A stretch of DNA of 61,848 bases, counting the filler, from a candidate division TA06 bacterium SM23_40 (GTDB lineage Bacteria; LJUI01; SM1-40), in the NCBI GenBank assembly GCA_001303705.1. It is 4 parts of 4 records of this genome, joined end to end, with 100 filler letters (N's around TTAATTAATTAA, not from the genome) between each part and the next. Parts side by side here need not be neighbours in the genome. Positions count along the whole stretch, not along the records: positions 1 to 30,138 come from LJUI01000015.1; 3 more parts are not named here. The stretch is one strand, 5' to 3'. Of the stretch, positions 1 to 41,557 are shown one piece after another; within the stretch, counting starts at the first letter, position 1; each line of letters opens with the position of its first letter. The notes beneath the pieces were generated by a model. That model saw nothing but the letters and a program-made list of their open reading frames with translations, had not been told where the DNA came from and made no database searches. A program made the position numbers and the translations under genes.

Positions 1-182
1 ACTGAGAAGAGCGGGCCCCTTAAACGTGGCCTCGAGACCTGAACAGTGAGTATCTCCGGCATTTGCCCGAACTAATGGATCCCCGAATTCCTGGTGGACA
101 GGACAGAGGGGATGATGTATTCTTGGGGCCAACCGGAAACCTAAGTGGGGCAGGAGATTGTTCATTATCTGAGAACGTGAGC

Positions 183-278
183 GGAAGCGGATAGGGGCTG
201 GTGTCCCTGCTGGACTTCAAATCCAGTTGTCCCGGTCGGTGCCGGGATGGTAGGTTCGATTCCTACACGCTTCCGCCA
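183..278 (+). tRNA. selC: tRNA-Sec (selenocysteine tRNA, anticodon UCA)
   Basis: 96 nt. Acceptor stem GGAAGCG/CGCTTCC then G-CCA; anticodon arm CTGGA-CTTCAAA-TCCAG with TCA anticodon; long variable arm TCCCGG...CCGGGA; T arm GTAGG-TTCGATT-CCTAC. Lies directly upstream of selD. Confidence 0.96.
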
Positions 279-426
279 TTCTGACTGGAAATGAGCCCCC
301 GCTCCGGGGGACAGGAGGCCCTGCGGGGCGGCAAAGGGCAGTGGCACGCATCTGACAGGTATCCGATGGGTATCAGACAGATATCGGAACGGTGAAGACC
401 ATGGATCAGCAGAAACGGAGGGCGTA

Positions 427-1470
427 ATGTCCCGAGTGCGCCTCACTCAGCTCGTCACGTGTGCGGGGTGAGCATCGAAAGTAGGTCTACAAGACCTCGT
501 GCAGGTTCTGCACGACATGCCTACTTCGGACGATCCGCACGTCATCGTCAGTTTCGATATGGTCGATGATGCCGGCGTGTACGAGCTCGACGACGGGACG
601 ATGCTCGTTCAGACCGTCGACTTCTTCACGCCGATCGTCGACGATCCATACACGTTCGGCCGGGTCGCGGCCGTGAACGCGCTGAGCGATGTCTATGCCA
701 TGGGAGGGGTGCCGAAGACCGCACTCAATATCGTCTGTTTCCCGGTGAAGACACTCGATCTGGCGATCCTCGGCGCGATCCTGAGGGGTGGAGCTGAGGT
801 GCTGGCCAGGGCCGGGGTGGCCCTGCTCGGGGGACATACCATTGAGGATGCCGAACCCAAGTACGGGCTCTCCGTTACCGGGATAGTAGAAGCGGAGGAG
901 ATGGTGACGAGCGCCGGGGTAAGGCCCGGCGACAAGCTCGTCCTTACCAAGCCGCTCGGCTCCGGCGTCATCACCACCGCGATGAGAACAGACCAGGCTC
1001 CTGAAGGAGCGGGCGAGAGGGTGATAGCCATGATGCTCGAGCTCAACCGGTCTGCCTCAGAGGCGATGTGTGCAGTCGGCGTCGATGCATGCACTGATAT
1101 CACTGGATTCGGACTGCTGGGGCATGCTCACGAGATGGCCCTTGTGAGCGGCGTGGGTCTCCGATTCTTCATGAACGCCATACCGCTCATCTCAGGCGCG
1201 AGGGAGTGTGCGGAACAGGGTTCTGTGCCCGGAGGGTCGGAGGCGAACAGGCTCTACGTAATGCCCTATCTGAAAATAGGAGAGGGGATATCCGAGATCG
1301 ATGTCGTGCTCCTCGCCGATGCCCAGACGTCAGGTGGCCTTCTCATCGCGGTCCCGCCGGAGCGGGAACAGGACCTGCTGGACGAGTTGCGGGCGCGAGA
1401 TGTCCATGCGGCAGTGACAATAGGAGAGGTGGTCGAGGGGAGGGTGGGGGAGATGGAGCTCGTCGCCTGA
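427..1470 (+). CDS. selD: Selenide, water dikinase (selenophosphate synthetase), selenoprotein form with Sec at codon 15 (TGA 469-471)
   Basis: ATG 427 with GGAGGG SD reads MSRVRLTQLVTCAG-U-ASKVG and is in frame with track ORF 499-1470. SelD motifs: DDAGVY, QTVDFFTPIVDDPY, NALSDVYAMGG, GGHTIED, TDITGFGLLGH, DAQTSGGLL. U15/K18 occupy the catalytic Cys/Sec and Lys positions. Confidence 0.96.
472..502 (+). promoter_or_regulatory. Candidate SECIS element of selD
   Basis: Immediately 3' of the UGA: stem AGGTC-TACAA-GACCT (483-497) with a possible lower stem GCA..CG/CG..TGC. The overlapping GTA-GGTC-TAC resembles the GCAGGUCUGC apex of the E. coli fdhF SECIS. Fold inferred by eye. Confidence 0.55.
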
Positions 1471-1608
1471 TGGAGTGAGCAGATCGAGTCGCGCCGGGAC
1501 TTCGCGGCGCCCGGCATATGGGCTGGGCACATGGGCTGGACAACGGGGAAACACAGGTCCTGGGGGCAGTGGCGGCGGGGGTCCGGCCTGCGGGAGCGGC
1601 GAAAACCA

Positions 1609-1638
1609 TTGACATCGCGGGTCGATTTCGGATATAGT
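1609..1638 (+). promoter_or_regulatory. sigma70-type promoter of the Omp28-like selenoprotein gene
   Basis: TTGACA (1609-1614), 18-nt spacer, TATAGT (1633-1638) in an otherwise GC-rich intergenic region. Confidence 0.65.
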
Positions 1639-1765
1639 ACTAGTCTATCCATCAGGAGCGGCCGAACCGACGCTGTGGGGAGCGGAGGCCGCTTTTGGCT
1701 GATGGGCTGCCGATTTGCGGAGCCGAACGGCGACAGAACCGATCCTGAAGGAAGTGGGCGCATCG

Positions 1766-3964
1766 ATGGACCGAGGTTGGCTGAAGATATCACGTTGGAG
1801 CTTTGCTGCAGCGAGCGGTGCCCGAGGCCCGCTGGTCGCCGGCCTTGTTGCGCTGGCCGTCTGTACAGTCGGGGCGTCGGACGCGGCTGCAGCCGACCGA
1901 GTCGTTCTGGCCGAGCTCTTCACCAACTATGCGTGAACGGGTTGCACTACCGCCAACAGGGTGTTGGACGACGTCATTGTTTCACTCGACTCGGTCTTCG
2001 CGGTCGTCAGGTACCACACCTGGTGGCCGAGCGCGAATGATCCGTTCTATCTGGCCAACATCGAGGAAAACACGGTCAGGACGCGCTATTATCAGCCAGA
2101 TACTGCGCATTACGTGCCTCGTCTGTTCATCGACGGCCTGATCGATGGGGAGTTCAGCGGGCCGTGGGAGGAGCTGATCGCGGCGCGTGATACTGTTGGG
2201 AGCCCGCTCGAGCTGGTAGGAGAGGTCATGCCGAGCGGCGGCATCGATGTCGATGTCGTGCTCGTCGGGACGGAAGAACCGCTCGACCTGGAGGGGCCTC
2301 TTCGCATACGGTATGTCCTTACGGAGTCCGATGTCTATGTCGCCTCGCCGACAGGACCGCACTGGTATGACCAGGCGATGCGCGACATGGTGCCTGACGC
2401 GGAAGGTGTTGAACTCGAGATCGGGCTCGGGGATACGATCTACGAGAGCCGGACCTTTCCGGTAGACGAGGAGTGGGATATCGAGAACCTCGAGGTCGTT
2501 GTCTTCGTCCAGAGGGATGATTCTACAAAGGAGGTGCTCCAGGCCGGGAAGTGGCCCGTGCCGGCGGATGTTCCCAACCTGAGTATCGTGGATGTGGCTC
2601 TTCTCGATCCGATGGGCGACGGCGACGGGAGGGCGGAAGAGGGCGAGGAAGTTGAGCTCATACTGAGCCTTATTAACAGTGAGCCCTGGCTCGATGCGAC
2701 GGCCGTCACTGCCACACTTCGGGAGGCCGATGCGTCGCTCACGCTCGTCGATTCCACGGCTGACTTCGGGGCTGTCGCGGCAGGGGATACGGTCGACAAC
2801 GCGGGGTCCCCGATCACCCTCTCGGTCGCAGACTACCTCGTTCCTCACCGGGCCGTGTTTACGCTCCGAATAGAGGCTGAACCGGGGGGGTATGCGGCGG
2901 ATGACACATTCTCTCTCGTCATAGGTCATCCGCAGATCCTGGTCGTTGATGATGACGATGGGGCGACGTGCGAGACGTCATACTCCGACATTATGGCCGA
3001 GAGCCTCGATCTCTTCTTCGAGCAGTGGGAAGTCGCCGAGCAGGGGAGTCCGATGGAGTGGCTTCTCAACTCCGAGCTCGTCGTCTGGTTCACGGGCGAT
3101 GACTCGACCCAGACGCTCACTGCAGATGATCGCGAGCACCTCGGTGCCTTTCTCGACGGAGGGGGGAAGCTGTTCCTCGCCGGCCAGAACATCGGCCAGG
3201 ATATCGGGGATGAGCCGTTCTATCATGACTAGGATATCGGGGATGAGCCGTTCTATCATGACTACATCCATGCCACGTTCGTCGATTCGGCGACGAGTGA
3301 TATCGCCATCTTCGGCGTGGCGGGCGATCCGGTCTGGGGGGGTGGGATCATCATCAATCAGGCCCAGCAGTCGATGGACGTGGTGAGCGCTACCGAAGAC
3401 GCCGATTCGGTCCTCGTCTACCAGAATGGGGGCGTAGCCGGTATCACCTATGAGGGGGAGTACAGAGTCATCTACTTCGCGTTCGGCGTTGAGGGTGCGG
3501 ACGAATCGTCTCCTCTCGTCCTGCACCGGCACCAGGTGCTGTCGAAGGCCCTGGGCTGGCTCGGCCTTCCCGTGGAGGTGTCAGGAGGAGAGCCTGTTGG
3601 GCCGGAATCGGCGCTGCCGCTCTGCCTTGTCCATCAGAACTACCCGAATCCCTTCGCCGAGATGACATCGCTCAGCTATGTCCTCGGCGGAGGAGAGGGC
3701 TATCTGTCGGCCCGAGGCGTGTGGGACGGCTCCGGCGGGGGGCGCGATGCCTCATATCGGGACGCTCATGTGAAGCTTGCGATCTATAACATACAGGGGC
3801 AGCGTGTGCGACTCCTCGTCGATGAGCCGCAGGAGGATGGCCGGTATGCCGTGGGCTGGGACGGCAGGGATGAGCGGGGAGAGACGGTCTCTTCCGGTGT
3901 TTATTTCATGAGGCTCGATGCGCGCGGGGAGAGATCAGTCCGGAAGATGGTTCGGCTCAAGTGA
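1766..3964 (+). CDS. Secreted Omp28-like thioredoxin-fold selenoprotein (UxxC, Sec57 at TGA 1934-1936) with C-terminal FlgD-Ig/T9SS-like domain; interrupted in this assembly by a TAG (3230-3232) created by a 33-bp duplication
   Basis: Track ORFs 1715-1936, 1961-3232 and 3317-3964 are all in one frame. Signal peptide ending ...SDAAA, then VVLAELFTNYA-U-TGC-TTAN (Omp28-like ExFTxxxCxxC), YHTWWP..DPFY, YVPRLFIDG, and WDIENLEVVVFVQ..KEVLQA. C-terminal QNYPNPF..IYNIQGQRVRLL..WDGRDERG..SSGVYF. Confidence 0.85.
1937..1967 (+). promoter_or_regulatory. Candidate bacterial SECIS element
   Basis: Perfect stem CCAACA (1953-1958) / TGTTGG (1962-1967) with a GGG loop starting 22 nt after the UGA. Spacing and apical G fit the bacterial SECIS consensus. 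Confidence 0.7.
3198..3263 (+). repeat. Exact 33-bp tandem duplication inside the selenoprotein gene
   Basis: AGGATATCGGGGATGAGCCGTTCTATCATGACT occurs at 3198-3230 and 3231-3263. The junction creates an in-frame TAG. Confidence 0.95.
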
Positions 3965-4150
3965 CGCAGGGGAGCCGGCGGACGATATAATCGACATTCA
4001 TGTTGGAGTTGGACGAATTGGTGTTCCTCCGGGAGCAGAACGAAAGCAAAGGGAATCGTCTACCTGCCGACGTGGCGCGGCGGATAGGACTCAGCGGTCC
4101 GGGAGTTGTGTTGGTTGTCTGAGGTGGTTTACAGGAAAGGGAGAGAGGCT

Positions 4151-6880
4151 ATGCGACGGTCATGGGTGAGCGCAGTATTCGAAACGGTGCATGCTCACAC
4201 CAAGGTGAAGGCGCGGCATGTCAGAGCGTTGCCGGTGGTGCTGGTCGCATCAGTGACGGCGATCGCCATCCTCGGTGCTGCGACCGTTTCGGCAGGTACG
4301 GGGATGCTCGCTTCGATCGAAGTTGGGGAAGACGGAATCGGCTCCCTCGGCTGGCTGGCCGACGAGCCGGTGGAGATCTACTACTGGACCCTGGAATATC
4401 TTCTTGTCGGCGCCGATGAAGGTACGGCGGAGAGGATCCGGGAGCGCGGGAACGAGGTCGAGGTTCTCGACCTCGTTCCGTGGAGTGAGCCGTACTATGT
4501 CATCTCGCGCCCGCAGGGTGAGCCACTCGGGGTGCTGCCTGCGGTGGGACTGGTGCTGTACCGCACGGAGCGCGAGGCAGTGGTGAAGGTGCAAGACGGA
4601 CTCGTCGAGGAATTCGGGGAGGCCGGATTCATGTTCGCCCGGATCTTCCAGCAGCCGCTGCCGTGGCCGCCGCGCCACGTTGAGCGGCTCGGCAGGATCG
4701 AGCAGTTCGGGCCCCTGGAGAGCGACACGCTGATAGCGCGTCTGGTCGGGGAGATCTCTGCCGATACCATCGAGGCGTATATCCAGCGGATGCAGGACTA
4801 CCAGACGAGGTACACCCCTACCGACTCGTGCTGGGCCTCGGCTCAGTGGATTCAGGATAAATTCCTCAGCTACGGGTATGTCGATGTCGAACTCGACTCG
4901 TTCTGGGTGAACTACAATCCGTGGTCGAGCTGGGCCGTCGATGTCGTGGCCGTCAAGTCCGGCACCCTCTACCCGACCAAGTACATCGTCATTGGAGGTC
5001 ACTACGACTCGGTCACCTATGGGTGGGAACCTGGTCCGTGGGAGTTTGCGCCCGGGGCCGACGACAACGCGACTGGTGCAGCCTCGACCATGGAGATCGC
5101 CAGGGCACTCGCCGATGAGGATATCGGCACCTCTGTCGTCTTCATCGCCTTCAGTGCCGAGGAGCAGGGCCTGTTCGGGAGCTGGCACTACGCCTCCTGG
5201 GCAGCGGGTATGGGCATGGACATCGTTCTGATGCTCAATATGGACATGACCGGTCGCTATGTGAGCGGGCCCAGATATGTCGACATGGGCGTCGGCCCGA
5301 CAGCCGAGGTCTTCGGAGAGCTCTGCGAGGCGATGGCCCTCGAGTACACGGACGCCATCCCTCTGGCAGGACCAGCCGGCGCGAACAGCGACCACTGGCC
5401 GTTCATTGCGAACGGCTTCGATGCGCTCATGCTCATCGAGAACGACTTCAACTACTTCGGCTGGCACTCGAACCATGACTCGCTCCACTATCTCGATATG
5501 ACGTATTGCCAGGACGTCGCGCAGACAGTTGTTGCCACGGCAGTAGCGCTCGGTGACGGGCGGGTCGGACTGGTCTCGGCATCTGATCACATGATCGACG
5601 AGGCAGTCGGCGACGGCGACGGGCGCGCCGAGCCGGGTGAGACGATCAATTTCATCGTCATCCTCGACAACGACGCGACGTGGACAGGGGCCACGAATGT
5701 CTCGGCCGTGCTGCGAACCGACGACCCGACGATCACGATCACTGACTCGATTGCCACATTCCCCGACATCCCGATCGGGGGTTCGGTCGATAACTCGCTC
5801 GATCCGTTTGTAGTGGAGATCGGTGCGAGCGATCCGCATATGGCCGAGTTCACGGTCGAGATCACGTCGACGCCTCCGAGCTTCGTGAGCGAACATACGC
5901 TAGAGGTCATCATCGGCCACCCCGCCATCATGGTCGTCGACGACGACGAGGGCGACGAGTACGAACATCGGTACCAGGCGGTACTCGGCGACTCGTTTGG
6001 GCTGTTTGTGGAGATCTGGGAGGTCGCGACCCAGGGATGCCCGGAGGATTGGCTCCTGAATGCTGAAGTCGTCATCTGGTACACGGGCGATGCGACCGAG
6101 AACACACTCACACCGGACGACATCACTGCGTTGAGCAACTTCCTCGATGGCGGAGGTAAGCTCTTCATCACGGGAGAGAACGTGGCTGAGGATCTGGATG
6201 GGTCCAACTTCCTCTCGGACTATCTGCACACCGCGCTCATCGATCCGAACTCGCCCGATTACTACATGGAGGGCGTGCCGGGTGACACGATCGGAGACGG
6301 TCTGCTCGTCATCGACGATACGCAGACGTCGATGGACATCATCTCTCCGGTCGGTGCGGATAGCGTACTCACCTATTCTTCGGGCGGCGCCGCGGCCGTG
6401 AGGTATGAGGGTGCGTACAAGGTCGTCTTCTTCGGATTCGGGTTCGAGTGGATCAATGACCAGGTCCCGACGTCCAGCCATCGCCACGAGGTGATGGCGA
6501 GAGTACTCAACTGGTTCGGCATGCCGGTGGTAGGAGTGAGCGACGGCGATGACGATGCCATCCAGAGGGATGCTGTCTTCTGGCTGGGGCAGAGTTATCC
6601 CAATCCTCTGCGCGGGTCGGCAGCGATCCGCTATGTCGTGCCCGGGGCGTCAGCGGCAGCAGGTGAGACCGCATCCGGGCAGCCGGTTACGCTGAAGGTG
6701 TACAACGTCCTGGGGCAGGTGGTGCGCACTCTTGTCGATCGGACTGAGGCGCCGGGTGACCACGTTGTAACCTGGGATCGGCGCGGTGACTCCGGCCGCG
6801 CGGTTGCACCGGGGATCTACTTCTATCGGCTCGAGGTTGGAGACGAGTCTGCGACACGCAAGGTTGTCGTGCTGAGATAG
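4151..6880 (+). CDS. Secreted M28-family zinc aminopeptidase with C-terminal FlgD-Ig/T9SS-like domain
   Basis: M28 motifs GGHYDS, PGADDNATG, FSAEEQGLFGS, LNMDM, SDHWPF, WHSNHD; hydrophobic N-terminal signal; C-terminal QSYPNP..VYNVLGQVVRTL..PGIYFYRL. ATG 4151 follows a purine-rich SD. Confidence 0.9.
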   Translation: MRRSWVSAVFETVHAHTKVKARHVRALPVVLVASVTAIAILGAATVSAGTGMLASIEVGEDGIGSLGWLADEPVEIYYWTLEYLLVGADEGTAERIRERGNEVEVLDLVPWSEPYYVISRPQGEPLGVLPAVGLVLYRTEREAVVKVQDGLVEEFGEAGFMFARIFQQPLPWPPRHVERLGRIEQFGPLESDTLIARLVGEISADTIEAYIQRMQDYQTRYTPTDSCWASAQWIQDKFLSYGYVDVELDSFWVNYNPWSSWAVDVVAVKSGTLYPTKYIVIGGHYDSVTYGWEPGPWEFAPGADDNATGAASTMEIARALADEDIGTSVVFIAFSAEEQGLFGSWHYASWAAGMGMDIVLMLNMDMTGRYVSGPRYVDMGVGPTAEVFGELCEAMALEYTDAIPLAGPAGANSDHWPFIANGFDALMLIENDFNYFGWHSNHDSLHYLDMTYCQDVAQTVVATAVALGDGRVGLVSASDHMIDEAVGDGDGRAEPGETINFIVILDNDATWTGATNVSAVLRTDDPTITITDSIATFPDIPIGGSVDNSLDPFVVEIGASDPHMAEFTVEITSTPPSFVSEHTLEVIIGHPAIMVVDDDEGDEYEHRYQAVLGDSFGLFVEIWEVATQGCPEDWLLNAEVVIWYTGDATENTLTPDDITALSNFLDGGGKLFITGENVAEDLDGSNFLSDYLHTALIDPNSPDYYMEGVPGDTIGDGLLVIDDTQTSMDIISPVGADSVLTYSSGGAAAVRYEGAYKVVFFGFGFEWINDQVPTSSHRHEVMARVLNWFGMPVVGVSDGDDDAIQRDAVFWLGQSYPNPLRGSAAIRYVVPGASAAAGETASGQPVTLKVYNVLGQVVRTLVDRTEAPGDHVVTWDRRGDSGRAVAPGIYFYRLEVGDESATRKVVVLR

Positions 6881-7124
6881 TATCATATGGCCCTGTGAGG
6901 CAGCAGATCGAGGCTTTTCCGGCAGTCACGTGATGGCCTCCATGAGAAAGGGTCCACTCTTCACAGTGAGCTCACATAGCACGTGCCTTCCGTGGGGTCA
7001 GATGATAGGAACATAGGCAATCAGGGATGTGATGCGCGTCGACACAGGACTTGTTGTGTGAGAATCGTGGCTCCAGGGTGACGCCCCGAATGGACAAACA
7101 TGGGTGGTTCGCAAGGAGGGTTCG

Positions 7125-7763
7125 ATGTTAGCCAGCGGCAAAAGGTTGCAGGTGGACGTTGGGTGGAGGCGTACTATCAGCGGTGCGGCAGTGCTGGGGG
7201 TTCTTCTTACGTTCGCGGCAGGATGGGTCGTAGCAGGCGAGCCCGGCGACGGCGAAGAAGACAACCCGAAGGTGGAGTTGATAGACGCAGCGGATGCATG
7301 TGTCGTCTCTGACTTCACGATGGAGAATGTCGATGGTGAGCGGGTGTCGCTCGATGATCTGCTCGAAGATGGGGTCGTTCTCATCGATTTCTGGGCACTC
7401 TGGTGTCGGCCGTGCCTGAGGGAGCTCGACTACCTCAATGATTTCAATAACAAGCGTGGGAAAGATGGGTTCGCGGTAGTGACTGTCAATATCGACACTC
7501 CTGAGTCGATAAGTCGGGTGAAGAGCTACGTCCAGAGTCGGGGATATGGCTTTGAAGTCCTGCTCGACCCGGAGAAGGAGCTGTACTACGATCTGAATGT
7601 TCCTGCAATCCCGTACTCCGTTCTCATCGATAGGGAGGGGCGGATCCGGTCGGTGCACATAGGGTTTCAGCTGGGCGATGAGAAGATCATGGAGAGAGAG
7701 ATAGCGGCCCTGATTGAGGAGGGGGTGGCCAATGAAACGGGAGAGGAGACGAGTGGCGAGTAG
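7125..7763 (+). CDS. TlpA/ResA-family thiol-disulfide oxidoreductase (exported)
   Basis: LIDFWALWCRPC motif, cis-Pro loop VPAIPYSVLID, N-terminal hydrophobic segment; AAGGAGG SD before ATG 7125. Confidence 0.9.
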   Translation: MLASGKRLQVDVGWRRTISGAAVLGVLLTFAAGWVVAGEPGDGEEDNPKVELIDAADACVVSDFTMENVDGERVSLDDLLEDGVVLIDFWALWCRPCLRELDYLNDFNNKRGKDGFAVVTVNIDTPESISRVKSYVQSRGYGFEVLLDPEKELYYDLNVPAIPYSVLIDREGRIRSVHIGFQLGDEKIMEREIAALIEEGVANETGEETSGE

Positions 7764-30138: not shown

Positions 30139-30238
30139 NNNNNNNNNNNNNNNNNNNNNNNNNNNNNNNNNNNNNNNNNNNNTTAATTAATTAANNNNNN
30201 NNNNNNNNNNNNNNNNNNNNNNNNNNNNNNNNNNNNNN
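30139..30238. other. Artificial contig linker (N-run with TTAATTAATTAA)
   Basis: 100 nt; six-frame stop linker at 30183-30194. Confidence 0.97.
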
Positions 30239-38838: not shown

Positions 38839-41557
38839 CTATCGTACCACAGCGATCTTGTGGAAACGGACCTCCTCTTCCCCCGCTCCCCTCGCTTCGA
38901 CGCGGCAGATATACACTCCACTCGCAACATCCGATAGATCCCAGACGGTCTCACACTCCTGAGGCGGCTGTGCCGCCTCCCCGTCCATCTGGGCAACGAG
39001 ATCCCCGGCTAGGTTGTAAATGGTAATCGTCACTTCTGCCGGCCTGCCGAGGAAATATCTAATCGTCGTCTCATCCCCATACGCCGGGTTTGGATAGTTG
39101 AAGAGGCTCTCGCTCGGCAGGAGGTCCCCGGCATAGGCAGGCGGGTCCGGAGTGAACCGCCCGTGCAATATGCCCCGGTGACCCGGGTCGGCGCGATACA
39201 TCCCCCACGGGAGGGTCAGCGTGTCTTCTGTGACACCGAGGTCCCAGGCGTACACCCAGCCACTCTCGGTACAGGCGACAAGCTCCCGTACTCCATCCGC
39301 ATCTATGTCGCCCAGAATCGGACAGGACGTGACGGCGCCGCCCGCTGCCACGGGGAACCCGCTCACCTCCCGTCCATCACTCCGCCAGGCATGAATCTCC
39401 CCTGAACTGGTGCCGCAGACCAGGTCCACCTCTCTATCCCCATCCACATCTCCGATCACGACGGAGGAGCCAAAGACAATGCTGTCGGCCTCTACCACCG
39501 GCCAACCGCTGGCAAACGAGCCGTTGTGATTCAGGACGACGATCTCGTTCGGCGTCGTCAACGCCACCTCGAGATAGCCATCTCCATCGACGTCGGCCAG
39601 CGCAGGATCTGTCTTCACGTTTTCTTCGATGCCCATAGGCCAGCCCGCTCTCAGATCCCCGCTTACTGAGAGACTATAGACACGACCCCCGCCAGTGACG
39701 GCGATCACTTCAAGCGATCCATTCCCGTCCATATCTCCCACCACCGTCGATGATTGAGAAAGCAATAACGACGGCGCTATTGCGGGCCAGCCGTCGAGAA
39801 CCGTTCCGTCGGCGTCGATGAGGAAGAGACGGCCATCCCCTGACAGGACGGCCACCTCGAGTTCCGGATCATCATCCACATCGACAACTGTGGGAGAGGA
39901 ACGGACTTCACCCCCCAAATCGACAGGAAAGCCAGGTACAGCTCTCAACGTATCCACCGGCTCCAACTCCCAGACGTACAGGCGCATGTCGTCGGCACCC
40001 ACGACGATCTCGTCTCTCCCGTCGCCGTCGATATCGGCCAGTGCCGGAGAGGACCGAACCGCACCGAGACCGATGGTAGCGATAGGAAATCCTGCGACGG
40101 GATCAGCGAGCGTATCGCCGTCGGCATCGAAGCTATGCCAGGCATACACACGTCCCTGCTCCGAACCGACCACAGTCTCGAGAAGCCCGTCTCCATCGAG
40201 ATCGCCCAGGGCGACAGATGAATAGATCGAGTCTCCGATCCCGGCCTGGGCGAACCACCCTGTCGGCCTCTCGGAGAAATAGGGTGATCCGTCGCCCTTC
40301 CACGCATAGGTCGCTCCATCGACTGAGGCCACGACGATCTCGAGAGTTCCGTCCCCGTCGATGTCAGCCAGATTGGGCGATCCCATGAATGACGCCGAAT
40401 CCCCGGCGGCCACGGGGAAGCCCGGCTGTGCCCACCGCCGTTCGATCAGACAGTCCATCGTGACACCAGATCGGCCGATGTCGGTTATCGAGACGTGACT
40501 GGCAGCGCCGCTGTAGCTATCGCTATTCGGCTGGGTGCTCGGAGCAAAGGACGTGTTGTTGCCCTCGCGGTAGGGATCTTCGGGACTGCCGAGGAACTCA
40601 TAGGAAGAGAACGTCACCCAGCCGTCGAAGTCCTGGATACCGTCCGCCTCCTCGAGATCGACGCCTTTGTGATCGGGATATGCATTGACAGTATTCGTCG
40701 CGAATCGCTCCTCGATCGCTTGCTCGTCAATGTGCCATATGAGCACCCCTGATCCCGGCAGGAGGTAATCGTACTCGCCGTAGAAACTGATGATTACCCC
40801 ATTCTCCATGTTGCCGATAACGATGCCGTCTCCGTCGATGTCCTCCTGACGATTCTCGACGAGGAAGTACTCGTGCTCATTGATCGGTACCTGCACCACT
40901 CTCACATCGCTCGGATCGACGATCGGCTCATAGGTCACGGTGTCCACCGGCACAGCCGCGGCCACGATCTCCAGCGCCTGGGACAGGTCCTCCGCAACGA
41001 TAGGCGTCTCCCATCCCATGTACATCCGGCACCATGCCGACAGATAGGGCGGAATGATCCCAGCCGGGATCCCGGCCGCGCTCAGCCAGTATCCGGTCGA
41101 CATCTCACACCAGCCCCCGATGCCAGAGGACCATCCGTACACATCGTACAGATCGGGGAGGCCGATCATGTGGCCGAACTCGTGCGCAACCAGCCCCTGG
41201 ATCCCGTTCGTCACCCCATCCTGAATTTGCGATTCTGCCACGATCGAGATCTCGTAGACCGTATCGGTGCCGGCGTTGGCAATGATCGGATGCTCTAGAT
41301 AGTACTCGATCGCACCACCCGGTATGAATGCGCTCGCGATGTCATAGGGGCTGTCCCACATGATATCTGACTGCCAGCTCGCTCCCGCATGGAAGACGAT
41401 GAAGGCGTCGAATCCCGTCGTATCCCCGATGTAGTCAGGTGTGAAGTTGACGTTTGCAATAGTGTCGGCATCCGCAGCCGCGACTGCGTCGCGCACTAAT
41501 ACGACGAGGCCCCGCTCCCTGTTGCTGGGATCTCCGTAGTAGAGCATCGTGTGAGGG
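38839..41557 (-). CDS. M6 (immune inhibitor A-like) metalloprotease with FG-GAP repeats and C-terminal FlgD-Ig/T9SS-like domain; 5'-truncated by the contig end
   Basis: HEFGHMIGLPDLY, EYFLVENRQ, GVLIWHIDE, VDLEEADG; multiple (A/G)DIDGDG..E(I/V)VV repeats; FNYPNP..IYNLAGDLV..ASGVY. Confidence 0.9.

Follow-up and report, generated by a model that had tools for sequence, protein, structure and literature searches.

A predicted exported thioredoxin-fold selenoprotein of about 720 residues encoded beside selC and selD in candidate division TA06 bacterium SM23_40

GOS_C was predicted in 2008 by Zhang and Gladyshev as a thioredoxin (Trx)-like selenoprotein with a UxxC motif (U, selenocysteine); the available part of that study gives 74 selenocysteine (Sec) and 312 cysteine (Cys) sequences and no known function (PMC2398784). 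The accessible excerpt of a 2026 review contains a table that equates the NCBIfam model NF045500, titled “Omp28-related selenoprotein”, with “Hypothetical protein GOS_C” (PMC13188914). HBP35, the 35-kDa hemin-binding protein of Porphyromonas gingivalis, is a type IX secretion system (T9SS) cargo, and the available sections of its description state that C48 and C51 are required for insulin reduction, a thioredoxin activity in vitro (PMC2907840). The gene described here shows likeness to both and belongs to candidate division TA06 bacterium SM23_40, where it lies on a stretch of DNA of 61,848 nucleotides (nt) that was analysed as a whole, filler included, and is called the window. From about position 30139 onward the window contains a run of N, so at least two contigs are joined in it; the first part equals the 30,138-bp contig of L001. 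A 100%-identical NadB is attributed to candidate division TA06 by its source.

The gene occupies positions 1766-3964 of the + strand. Its reading as an exported thioredoxin-fold selenoprotein of about 720 amino acids (aa), with Sec at the attacking position of the CxxC motif, that annotation has split and missed, is supported by the Sec/Cys homology, a conserved hairpin resembling a selenocysteine insertion sequence (SECIS), the adjacent tRNA-Sec and selD, and the public records. The features of the gene are as follows.

1766-3964, + strand: the whole gene, encoding a predicted secreted Omp28/HBP35-like selenoprotein; 732 codons as written, 721 aa without the 11 duplicated codons
1766-1894, + strand: residues 1 to about 43, a probable Sec-type signal peptide assigned by inspection
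1883-2590, + strand: predicted thioredoxin fold (UxxC, cis-Pro loop VPRLF) and beta-sandwich, together the “Omp28-like” region (AlphaFold2, Foldseek)
1934-1936, + strand: TGA read as selenocysteine (putative U57), position 1 of U-T-G-C, based on column counts in homologues
1953-1967, + strand: SECIS-like hairpin CCAACA-GGG-UGUUGG, extendable to 1951-1970; -6.7 kcal/mol
2591-2905, + strand: middle region of about 105 aa, no Pfam family
2906-3589, + strand: class I glutamine-amidotransferase-like alpha/beta domain (ThuA-like/GH42 trimerisation-domain-like), from the predicted structure
3198-3264, + strand: perfect 33-bp tandem duplication, its junction being TAG 3230-3232 (TRF: period 33, 2.0 copies, 100% match)
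3641-3952, + strand: type IX secretion C-terminal sorting domain (FlgD_ig, TIGR04183)

A single frame of the + strand (frame 2) runs from ATG 1766 to TGA 3962-3964 and is interrupted only twice, by TGA 1934-1936 and by TAG 3230-3232. The three open reading frame (ORF) pieces 1715/1766-1936, 1961-3232, and 3317-3964 all lie in this frame, as the preliminary description had noticed, and the first TGA falls exactly on the first Cys of the redox motif (..DRVVLAELFTNYA-U-TGCTTANRVLDD.., that is, ..VLAELFTNYA-U-TGC..). The gene is continuous across both breaks; the public protein P0001 (656 aa, 98% identical) corresponds to residue 66 to the end and lacks the duplication. Public records, all named “hypothetical protein”, give the gene either as pieces of 215-422 aa or as 655-656-aa forms without the first 65 residues, which start after the TGA. 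The earlier claim of an exported protein of about 720 aa overlooked by annotation is thus supported, with a predicted length of 721 aa. The proposed split into three was right for the first break, the TGA; the third piece is set off by the TAG of the 33-bp duplication, which had been left unexplained. Since selenocysteine cannot account for a TAG, the second break needs another explanation.

The first line of evidence is the column of the TGA in homologues. The DNA of 29 related loci was compared, and three of the window's own species were left out, leaving 26 loci with 35 homologous ORFs that cover the column. Here, 19 ORFs have TGA, nine TGC, five TGT, one AAC, and one GGG, while TAA or TAG occurs in none of the 35. 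Homologues had been expected to carry Cys or TGA at this position, and the count is 19 TGA and 14 Cys codons. Many of these ORFs are near-copies from sister genomes, so the independent TGA cases are fewer than counted. The TGA-bearing ORFs measure 340-915 codons overall where the locus holds them whole, and some reach the locus end. The flanks ExFTxxx-[U/C]-xxC are conserved on both sides of the column, and the codons upstream of the TGA align with the signal peptide and ExFTxxxCxxC motif of the homologues.

At the protein level, a first homology search returned proteins 85-98% identical that were all called from just past the TGA, and more distant homologues covering the column have Cys in CxxC in nine of 10 cases and Arg in one. 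A library-wide HMMER search matched 2275 cluster representatives at E <= 0.001; among the best 153 aligned hits of these, 119 cover the column, with CxxC in 114, and the remaining 34 start just past the motif, where a gene caller would be expected to begin a Sec form. In a tree built from 36 N-domains, which excluded L002, L003, and three partial hits, six changes of the Sec label are required, at least two of them forced by well-supported branches. Two contigs with 99% identity retain the TGA, and it is unchanged in contigs from all four sequencing runs; none of the runs listed is of RNA. Taken as a whole, the comparison shows predicted Sec and Cys forms alternating at this column.

Variants of the motif occur as well. 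L019:2998-3114 reads SGGGG-TGA-PQG and has no second Cys, Asn replaces the first Cys at L006:3118 (N-A-G-C), and P0018 has Arg at the column where its near-twin P0019 has Cys. Two sister genomes, attributed by their sources to Zixibacteria and Ignavibacteria, each have four Omp28-like T9SS paralogues in a tandem array (L026:389-5315 and L028:2409-7237); these are about 345 aa long, and each array has one Cys and three TGA copies. Arrays of two to three TGA paralogues are found at L007 and L008. Reassignment of TGA in the genetic code was considered and rejected, because TGA serves as an ordinary stop for 17 of the 39 large ORFs in the window.

The second line of evidence is the hairpin, which starts 16 nt past the TGA (+17 to +31), with 22 nt between the TGA and the loop. 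Its sequence, CCAACA-GGG-TGTTGG at the DNA level, and its placement are as first described. Because the hairpin alone is no better than chance (see below), its weight comes only from the comparison of homologues. For this, 14 Sec forms in a common register (11 of them distinct) were aligned over the 48 nt from the TGA. The helix columns 20-24/30-34 past the TGA are paired in all 11 distinct forms (five core pairs, 55 of 55 cells), while slid-partner controls pair in at most 46.8% of cells. Pair 23-31, the one compensatory pair that the proposed covariation analysis yielded, is A-U in six forms and G-C in five and is never unpaired, although the sequences are related and the independent events behind this pattern few. 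On the 3′ side of this pair, the change between TTG and CTG falls on the first position of a Leu codon and is synonymous. Most Sec forms have the loop xGUGx, and the window has AGGGU, or GGG with one more pair closed. In Zixibacteria-type copies, the hairpin is another one, with an AGUU loop, and is placed about 12 nt farther downstream. The best-hairpin energy is -7.9 kcal/mol for 20 Sec forms vs -4.2 kcal/mol for 15 non-Sec forms (p = 3e-5, L019 omitted), a contrast that is confounded by G+C content and near-duplicate loci. Within two genomes, the hairpins of the Sec paralogues are stronger than that of the Cys paralogue. The alignment shows the hairpin to be conserved among the putative Sec forms, and the hairpin at 1953-1967 is likely a SECIS element.

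L021:3109-3160 is a Cys form inside a mostly-Sec Fermentibacteria-type clade. Its hairpin is kept (-9.0 kcal/mol) and the loop is without GUG, the state that a recent Sec-to-Cys switch would be expected to leave.

The third line of evidence lies directly upstream of the gene, where selC and selD are found as had been reported. The following features precede the start codon.

183-278, + strand: tRNA-Sec (selC), anticodon TCA (ARAGORN; Rfam RF01852 at 183-274)
427-1470, + strand: selD, selenide, water dikinase (TIGR00476, 380.7 bits, cut-off 125, TGA read through)
1609-1638, + strand: match to a sigma-70-like promoter, TTGACA-18 nt-TATAGT (in agreement with the consensus at 11 of 12 positions)

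The tRNA-Sec scores 77.7 bits against RF01852 (gathering score 47, E = 2e-15). selD carries an in-frame TGA of its own at 469-471 (..TCAG-U-ASK..) and is itself a predicted selenoprotein gene; a hairpin of 8 bp with a GUU loop lies about 26 nt past this TGA. In a scan of the window for further in-frame TGAs of the UxxC/CxxU type, credible cases were seen only in selD and in the gene at 1766-3964. In the genomes of relatives, selB scores over the cut-off in eight of nine, including all three that hold TGA forms, and the single genome without selB has Cys forms only. The tRNA-Sec adjoins the gene in one of 25 loci scanned, the same-species L002, and the adjacency of selC and selD is therefore not a family trait. 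The near-consensus sigma-70-like promoter at 1609-1638 sits between selD and the selenoprotein gene, which suggests that the gene has its own transcript; as a consensus match only, one promoter-like site was found vs 0.7 expected from shuffles.

The protein takes on a modular organization. The start codon ATG 1766 is preceded 10 nt upstream by GAAGGAAG. By inspection, the N terminus, to which the preliminary description had assigned a signal peptide, has the look of one of the Sec type, with the basic residues R3, K7, R10, and R20 followed by the hydrophobic stretch PLVAGLVALAVCTV; in the homologues, the same motif is preceded by an ordinary signal peptide of 20-25 aa. The AlphaFold2 model of the N-domain (residues 40-275) reaches a predicted local distance difference test (pLDDT) of 91.6 and a predicted template modeling score (pTM) of 0.90, and U57 is placed just ahead of helix 1. 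Foldseek ranks HBP35 (5y1a) first and DUF1223 (2axo) second for this model, and Omp28 (2r2c) is also matched. Thioredoxin 1fo5 of Methanocaldococcus aligns weakly, with U falling on the first Cys of its CPHC and VPRLF on its cis-Pro loop. The positions that the family as a whole conserves (E11, T14, C18, C21, and P79 in domain numbering) are of the Trx type.

The middle region, for which the stretch 2561-2941 gave no Pfam family at E <= 1, has counterparts in 17 of 171 relatives compared and may resemble CARDB-type immunoglobulin-like domains. The glutamine-amidotransferase-like domain was modelled over 217 aa from an undisturbed copy (L003:1054-1704, pLDDT 91.9). Its Foldseek matches are GH42 proteins (5e9a/5xb7, TM 0.64-0.66), STM3548 (2gk3), and ThuA-like proteins (4jqs/1t0b), with an overall TM of about 0.6-0.66. 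Pfam has no match for it, and no conserved Cys is visible in it, as read from the alignment consensus. The domain occurs in 49 of the 171 relatives and in three of 21 locus ORFs, including one other Sec form with DNA (L012). For the C-terminal domain, a protein atlas gave unnamed Bacteroidota clusters only (scores 0.91-0.93, 156-159 shared features), which are leads only. Structure prediction thus shows two folds, a thioredoxin fold with beta-sandwich and a glutamine-amidotransferase-like domain.

The FlgD-Ig/T9SS-like tail recognized at the outset is confirmed by FlgD_ig (35.1 bits, cut-off 27) and TIGR04183 (25.5 bits, cut-off 23); Pfam Por_Secre_tail stays at 20.3 bits, under its cut-off of 27. 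Two other T9SS-tail proteins are encoded in the window. The neighborhood includes a T9SS-tailed aminopeptidase-like protein (4106-6880) and a ResA/TlpA-like thiol-disulfide oxidoreductase (7104-7763), and a T9SS-dependent M6-like metalloprotease is encoded at 38839-41547. Together with the selenoprotein, these proteins might take part in extracytoplasmic protein processing.

A pathway from gene to function can be proposed. The UGA at 1934-1936 would be decoded as selenocysteine by the Sec system of the organism, with SelB probably binding the hairpin at 1953-1967. The protein would then cross the inner membrane via the Sec export pathway and the outer membrane via the T9SS, and would end on the cell surface or be released. 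There, the selenol of U57 may attack disulfides or related oxidised sulfur substrates, with C60 acting as the resolving residue. By analogy with the CxxC of HBP35 in vitro, the protein is most likely a surface or secreted selenol/thiol-disulfide oxidoreductase working outside the cell. The TAG at 3230 would have no biological part in this scheme, being part of a 33-bp overlap written twice in the assembly.

With good confidence, positions 1766-3964 are considered a single gene that encodes an exported selenoprotein of about 721 aa, an explanation that takes in the domain order, the UGA read as Sec, and the artefactual TAG. Several observations weigh against it. Taken alone, the hairpin is weak and no better than chance: the 71-nt region around the TGA has z = +1.9, with 198 of 200 shuffles folding at least as well, and a hairpin of -6.7 kcal/mol or lower occurs in 55% of 350 stretches of 47 nt drawn at random from the window (60% G+C). 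Over positions 1-4200, Rfam at E <= 1 recognizes the tRNA-Sec only and no SECIS family. The 37 large ORFs of the window include neither selA nor selB. The family models are missed at their cut-offs, with 22 vs 200 bits for the curated NF045500, 15.6 vs 30.7 bits for Pfam DUF1223, and, just under, 31.6 vs 34.9 bits for Pfam PF11551 (Omp28). In the DNA as given, the TAG would strip the secretion tail, and the single-copy evidence set out below rests on contigs, which drop rare variants, and the source sample may itself be one of the four runs. Finally, an extracellular reductase would be without an obvious electron donor.

Alternatively, the protein could chiefly be a surface binding or uptake protein for haem or metal, in which the UxxC serves as a metal or chalcogen ligand instead of a catalytic redox pair. 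According to the available part of its description, HBP35 binds hemin via M135-P344 and supports growth at low hemin (PMC2907840). The beta-sandwich is common to HBP35 and the window protein, and in the alignment consensus no catalytic Cys is conserved in the glutamine-amidotransferase-like domain. The conserved positions of the N-domain are nevertheless those of a thioredoxin (E11, T14, C18, C21, P79), and it is typically at catalytic redox sites that Sec stands in for Cys. No haem-binding motif was seen, although no test was aimed at one. A role limited to binding is therefore regarded as unlikely, and an oxidoreductase is preferred.

The second break raises the question of whether the duplication is real. 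It reads DIGDEPFYHD*DIGDEPFYHDY and is present in the window and in L001, which matches the window without a difference over 6229 bases and is therefore not independent. A single copy without a stop is found in P0001 and in the 99%-identical contig L003. Logan contigs from all four runs, which belong to four studies, likewise have a single copy, with 3197 joined to 3231, and all of them have C for the window's A at 3266, two bases past the repeat. A perfect repeat of 33-34 nt beside a polymorphic site has the look of an untrimmed overlap between two graph contigs. Because of the single copy in L003, P0001, and the contigs of all four runs, the duplication and its TAG are very probably an assembly artefact.

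If the duplication and TAG were instead real in the strain, the gene would encode a 488-aa selenoprotein without secretion tail, recently inactivated or retained in the periplasm. Its occurrence in both the window and L001 speaks for this, as do the inability of contigs to show a variant absent and the different lesion (a 5-nt deletion) in the same gene of the sister contig L003. Yet no two-copy contig is listed for any of the four runs, P0001 and four other cluster members (655-656 aa) are intact, the two copies are 100% identical, and the repeat ends 2 nt from the polymorphic A3266C seen in all four runs, the pattern that an untrimmed overlap would leave. A real duplication is accordingly considered rather improbable. 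The lesion in L003:1-1379 (equivalent to window 1848-3231) consists of 5 nt missing near window 2670, a strain-variable spot, which shifts the frame; in public records, this version of the gene appears as two hypothetical proteins.

That the TGA is a true stop, leaving a pseudogene or a gene that starts at GTG 1961 without the 57 upstream codons, is very improbable. The public records do begin just past the TGA (the 655-656-aa forms and the 422-aa piece), and the hairpin alone is not significant. A start at 1961, however, would leave a protein with no signal peptide and half a thioredoxin fold that still keeps its secretion tail, and the upstream codons align with the signal peptide and ExFTxxxCxxC of the homologues. 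Moreover, the column holds TGA in 19 of 35 homologous ORFs and TAA or TAG in none, the TGA forms need at least two separate switches on the tree, and the TGA is retained in the 99%-identical contigs and all four runs. Readthrough of the UGA with Cys or Trp by a near-cognate tRNA, for which the lack of selA and selB among the 37 large ORFs could be cited, is the least credible alternative, given the adjacent tRNA-Sec and a selD with its own in-frame UGA, the conserved hairpin at the SECIS position with its compensatory change, and the 17 of 39 window ORFs that end in TGA.

Beyond the exported selenoprotein itself, a wider reading can be entertained tentatively, although it is doubtful as a whole. 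It holds that the gene belongs to a large, almost wholly unannotated radiation of T9SS-displayed selenoenzymes outside the outer membrane. The hosts would be uncultured sediment bacteria (TA06, Zixibacteria, and Fermentibacteria, as named by the sources), with Sec in about half of the readable copies. The long form would assemble on the cell surface via its glutamine-amidotransferase-like domain, and the enzymes would act as selenol reductases on extracellular disulfide-rich proteins, polysulfides, or metalloids in sulfidic sediment. If true, selenium would have a distinct extracellular role in bacteria, and a surface-displayed bacterial selenoenzyme is a testable idea. More immediately, the annotation is corrected for public “hypothetical protein” pieces that are without the active site, and a branch comes into view that is common (the 2275 cluster representatives), alternates between Sec and Cys forms, and is missed both by gene callers and by the curated model NF045500.

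In comparison with known systems, NF045500 is the best NCBIfam match of the N-domain (residues 40-262, E = 8.7e-5). Judging from the available part of the GOS_C description, GOS_C/NF045500 and the window protein are alike in being Trx-like, in the UxxC motif, and in having many Cys homologues. This kind of protein is already known: the GOS_C/Omp28-related selenoprotein is catalogued, and the window gene is an unannotated relative. The novelty as an Omp28-family selenoprotein that the preliminary description had considered fails because NF045500, equated with GOS_C of 2008 in the review excerpt, already exists; a literature search found no full text that pairs “Omp28” with “selenoprotein”. Because the window protein reaches 22 bits against the cut-off of 200, and the other Sec forms 34-53 bits, it appears to represent a divergent, uncurated branch beside NF045500 with a T9SS tail and extra domains.

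The P. gingivalis outer membrane lipoprotein Omp28 (PF11551, NF033782, 2r2c) matches in the sandwich half (Foldseek E = 5e-5, profile E = 4.3e-8), and its solved piece 2r2c covers the sandwich domain only. NF033782 gives 20.6 bits for the window protein, far under 150. The Cys orthologue P0005 (44% identical), named “Omp28-related outer membrane protein” by its source, scores 55.3 bits for Pfam Omp28, and P0019 scores 43.9 bits (cut-off 34.9). In DUF1223 (PF06764; 2axo, Atu2684), the motif ELFTSxGCxxCP aligns with CxxC on CxxC (family profile E = 2.7e-6), and the fold matches with a TM of 0.64. DUF1223 proteins are about 250 aa long and have no T9SS tail and no Sec among those seen, whereas the window protein is longer and tailed.

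HBP35 (PDB 5y1a) is the best match of the N-domain (E = 1.1e-13, TM 0.80, 253 columns). The Omp28-like thioredoxin fold that had been proposed therefore stands in the model (pLDDT 91.6) and in this structural match, but not at the level of Pfam Omp28, where 31.6 bits fall under 34.9. HBP35 and the window protein both have a thioredoxin fold, an N-terminal CxxC-type motif, a fused beta-sandwich, and a type IX secretion tail. They differ in that HBP35 has Cys where the window protein has Sec, and the sequence identity is 13%; C48 of HBP35 may correspond to U57, going by a weak profile match with ranges offset by 11. HBP35, with 344 aa, is without the middle region and the glutamine-amidotransferase-like domain, both of which the window protein of about 721 aa possesses. 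The gene would thus add a multi-domain, T9SS-tailed branch to the Omp28-related/GOS_C selenoproteins.

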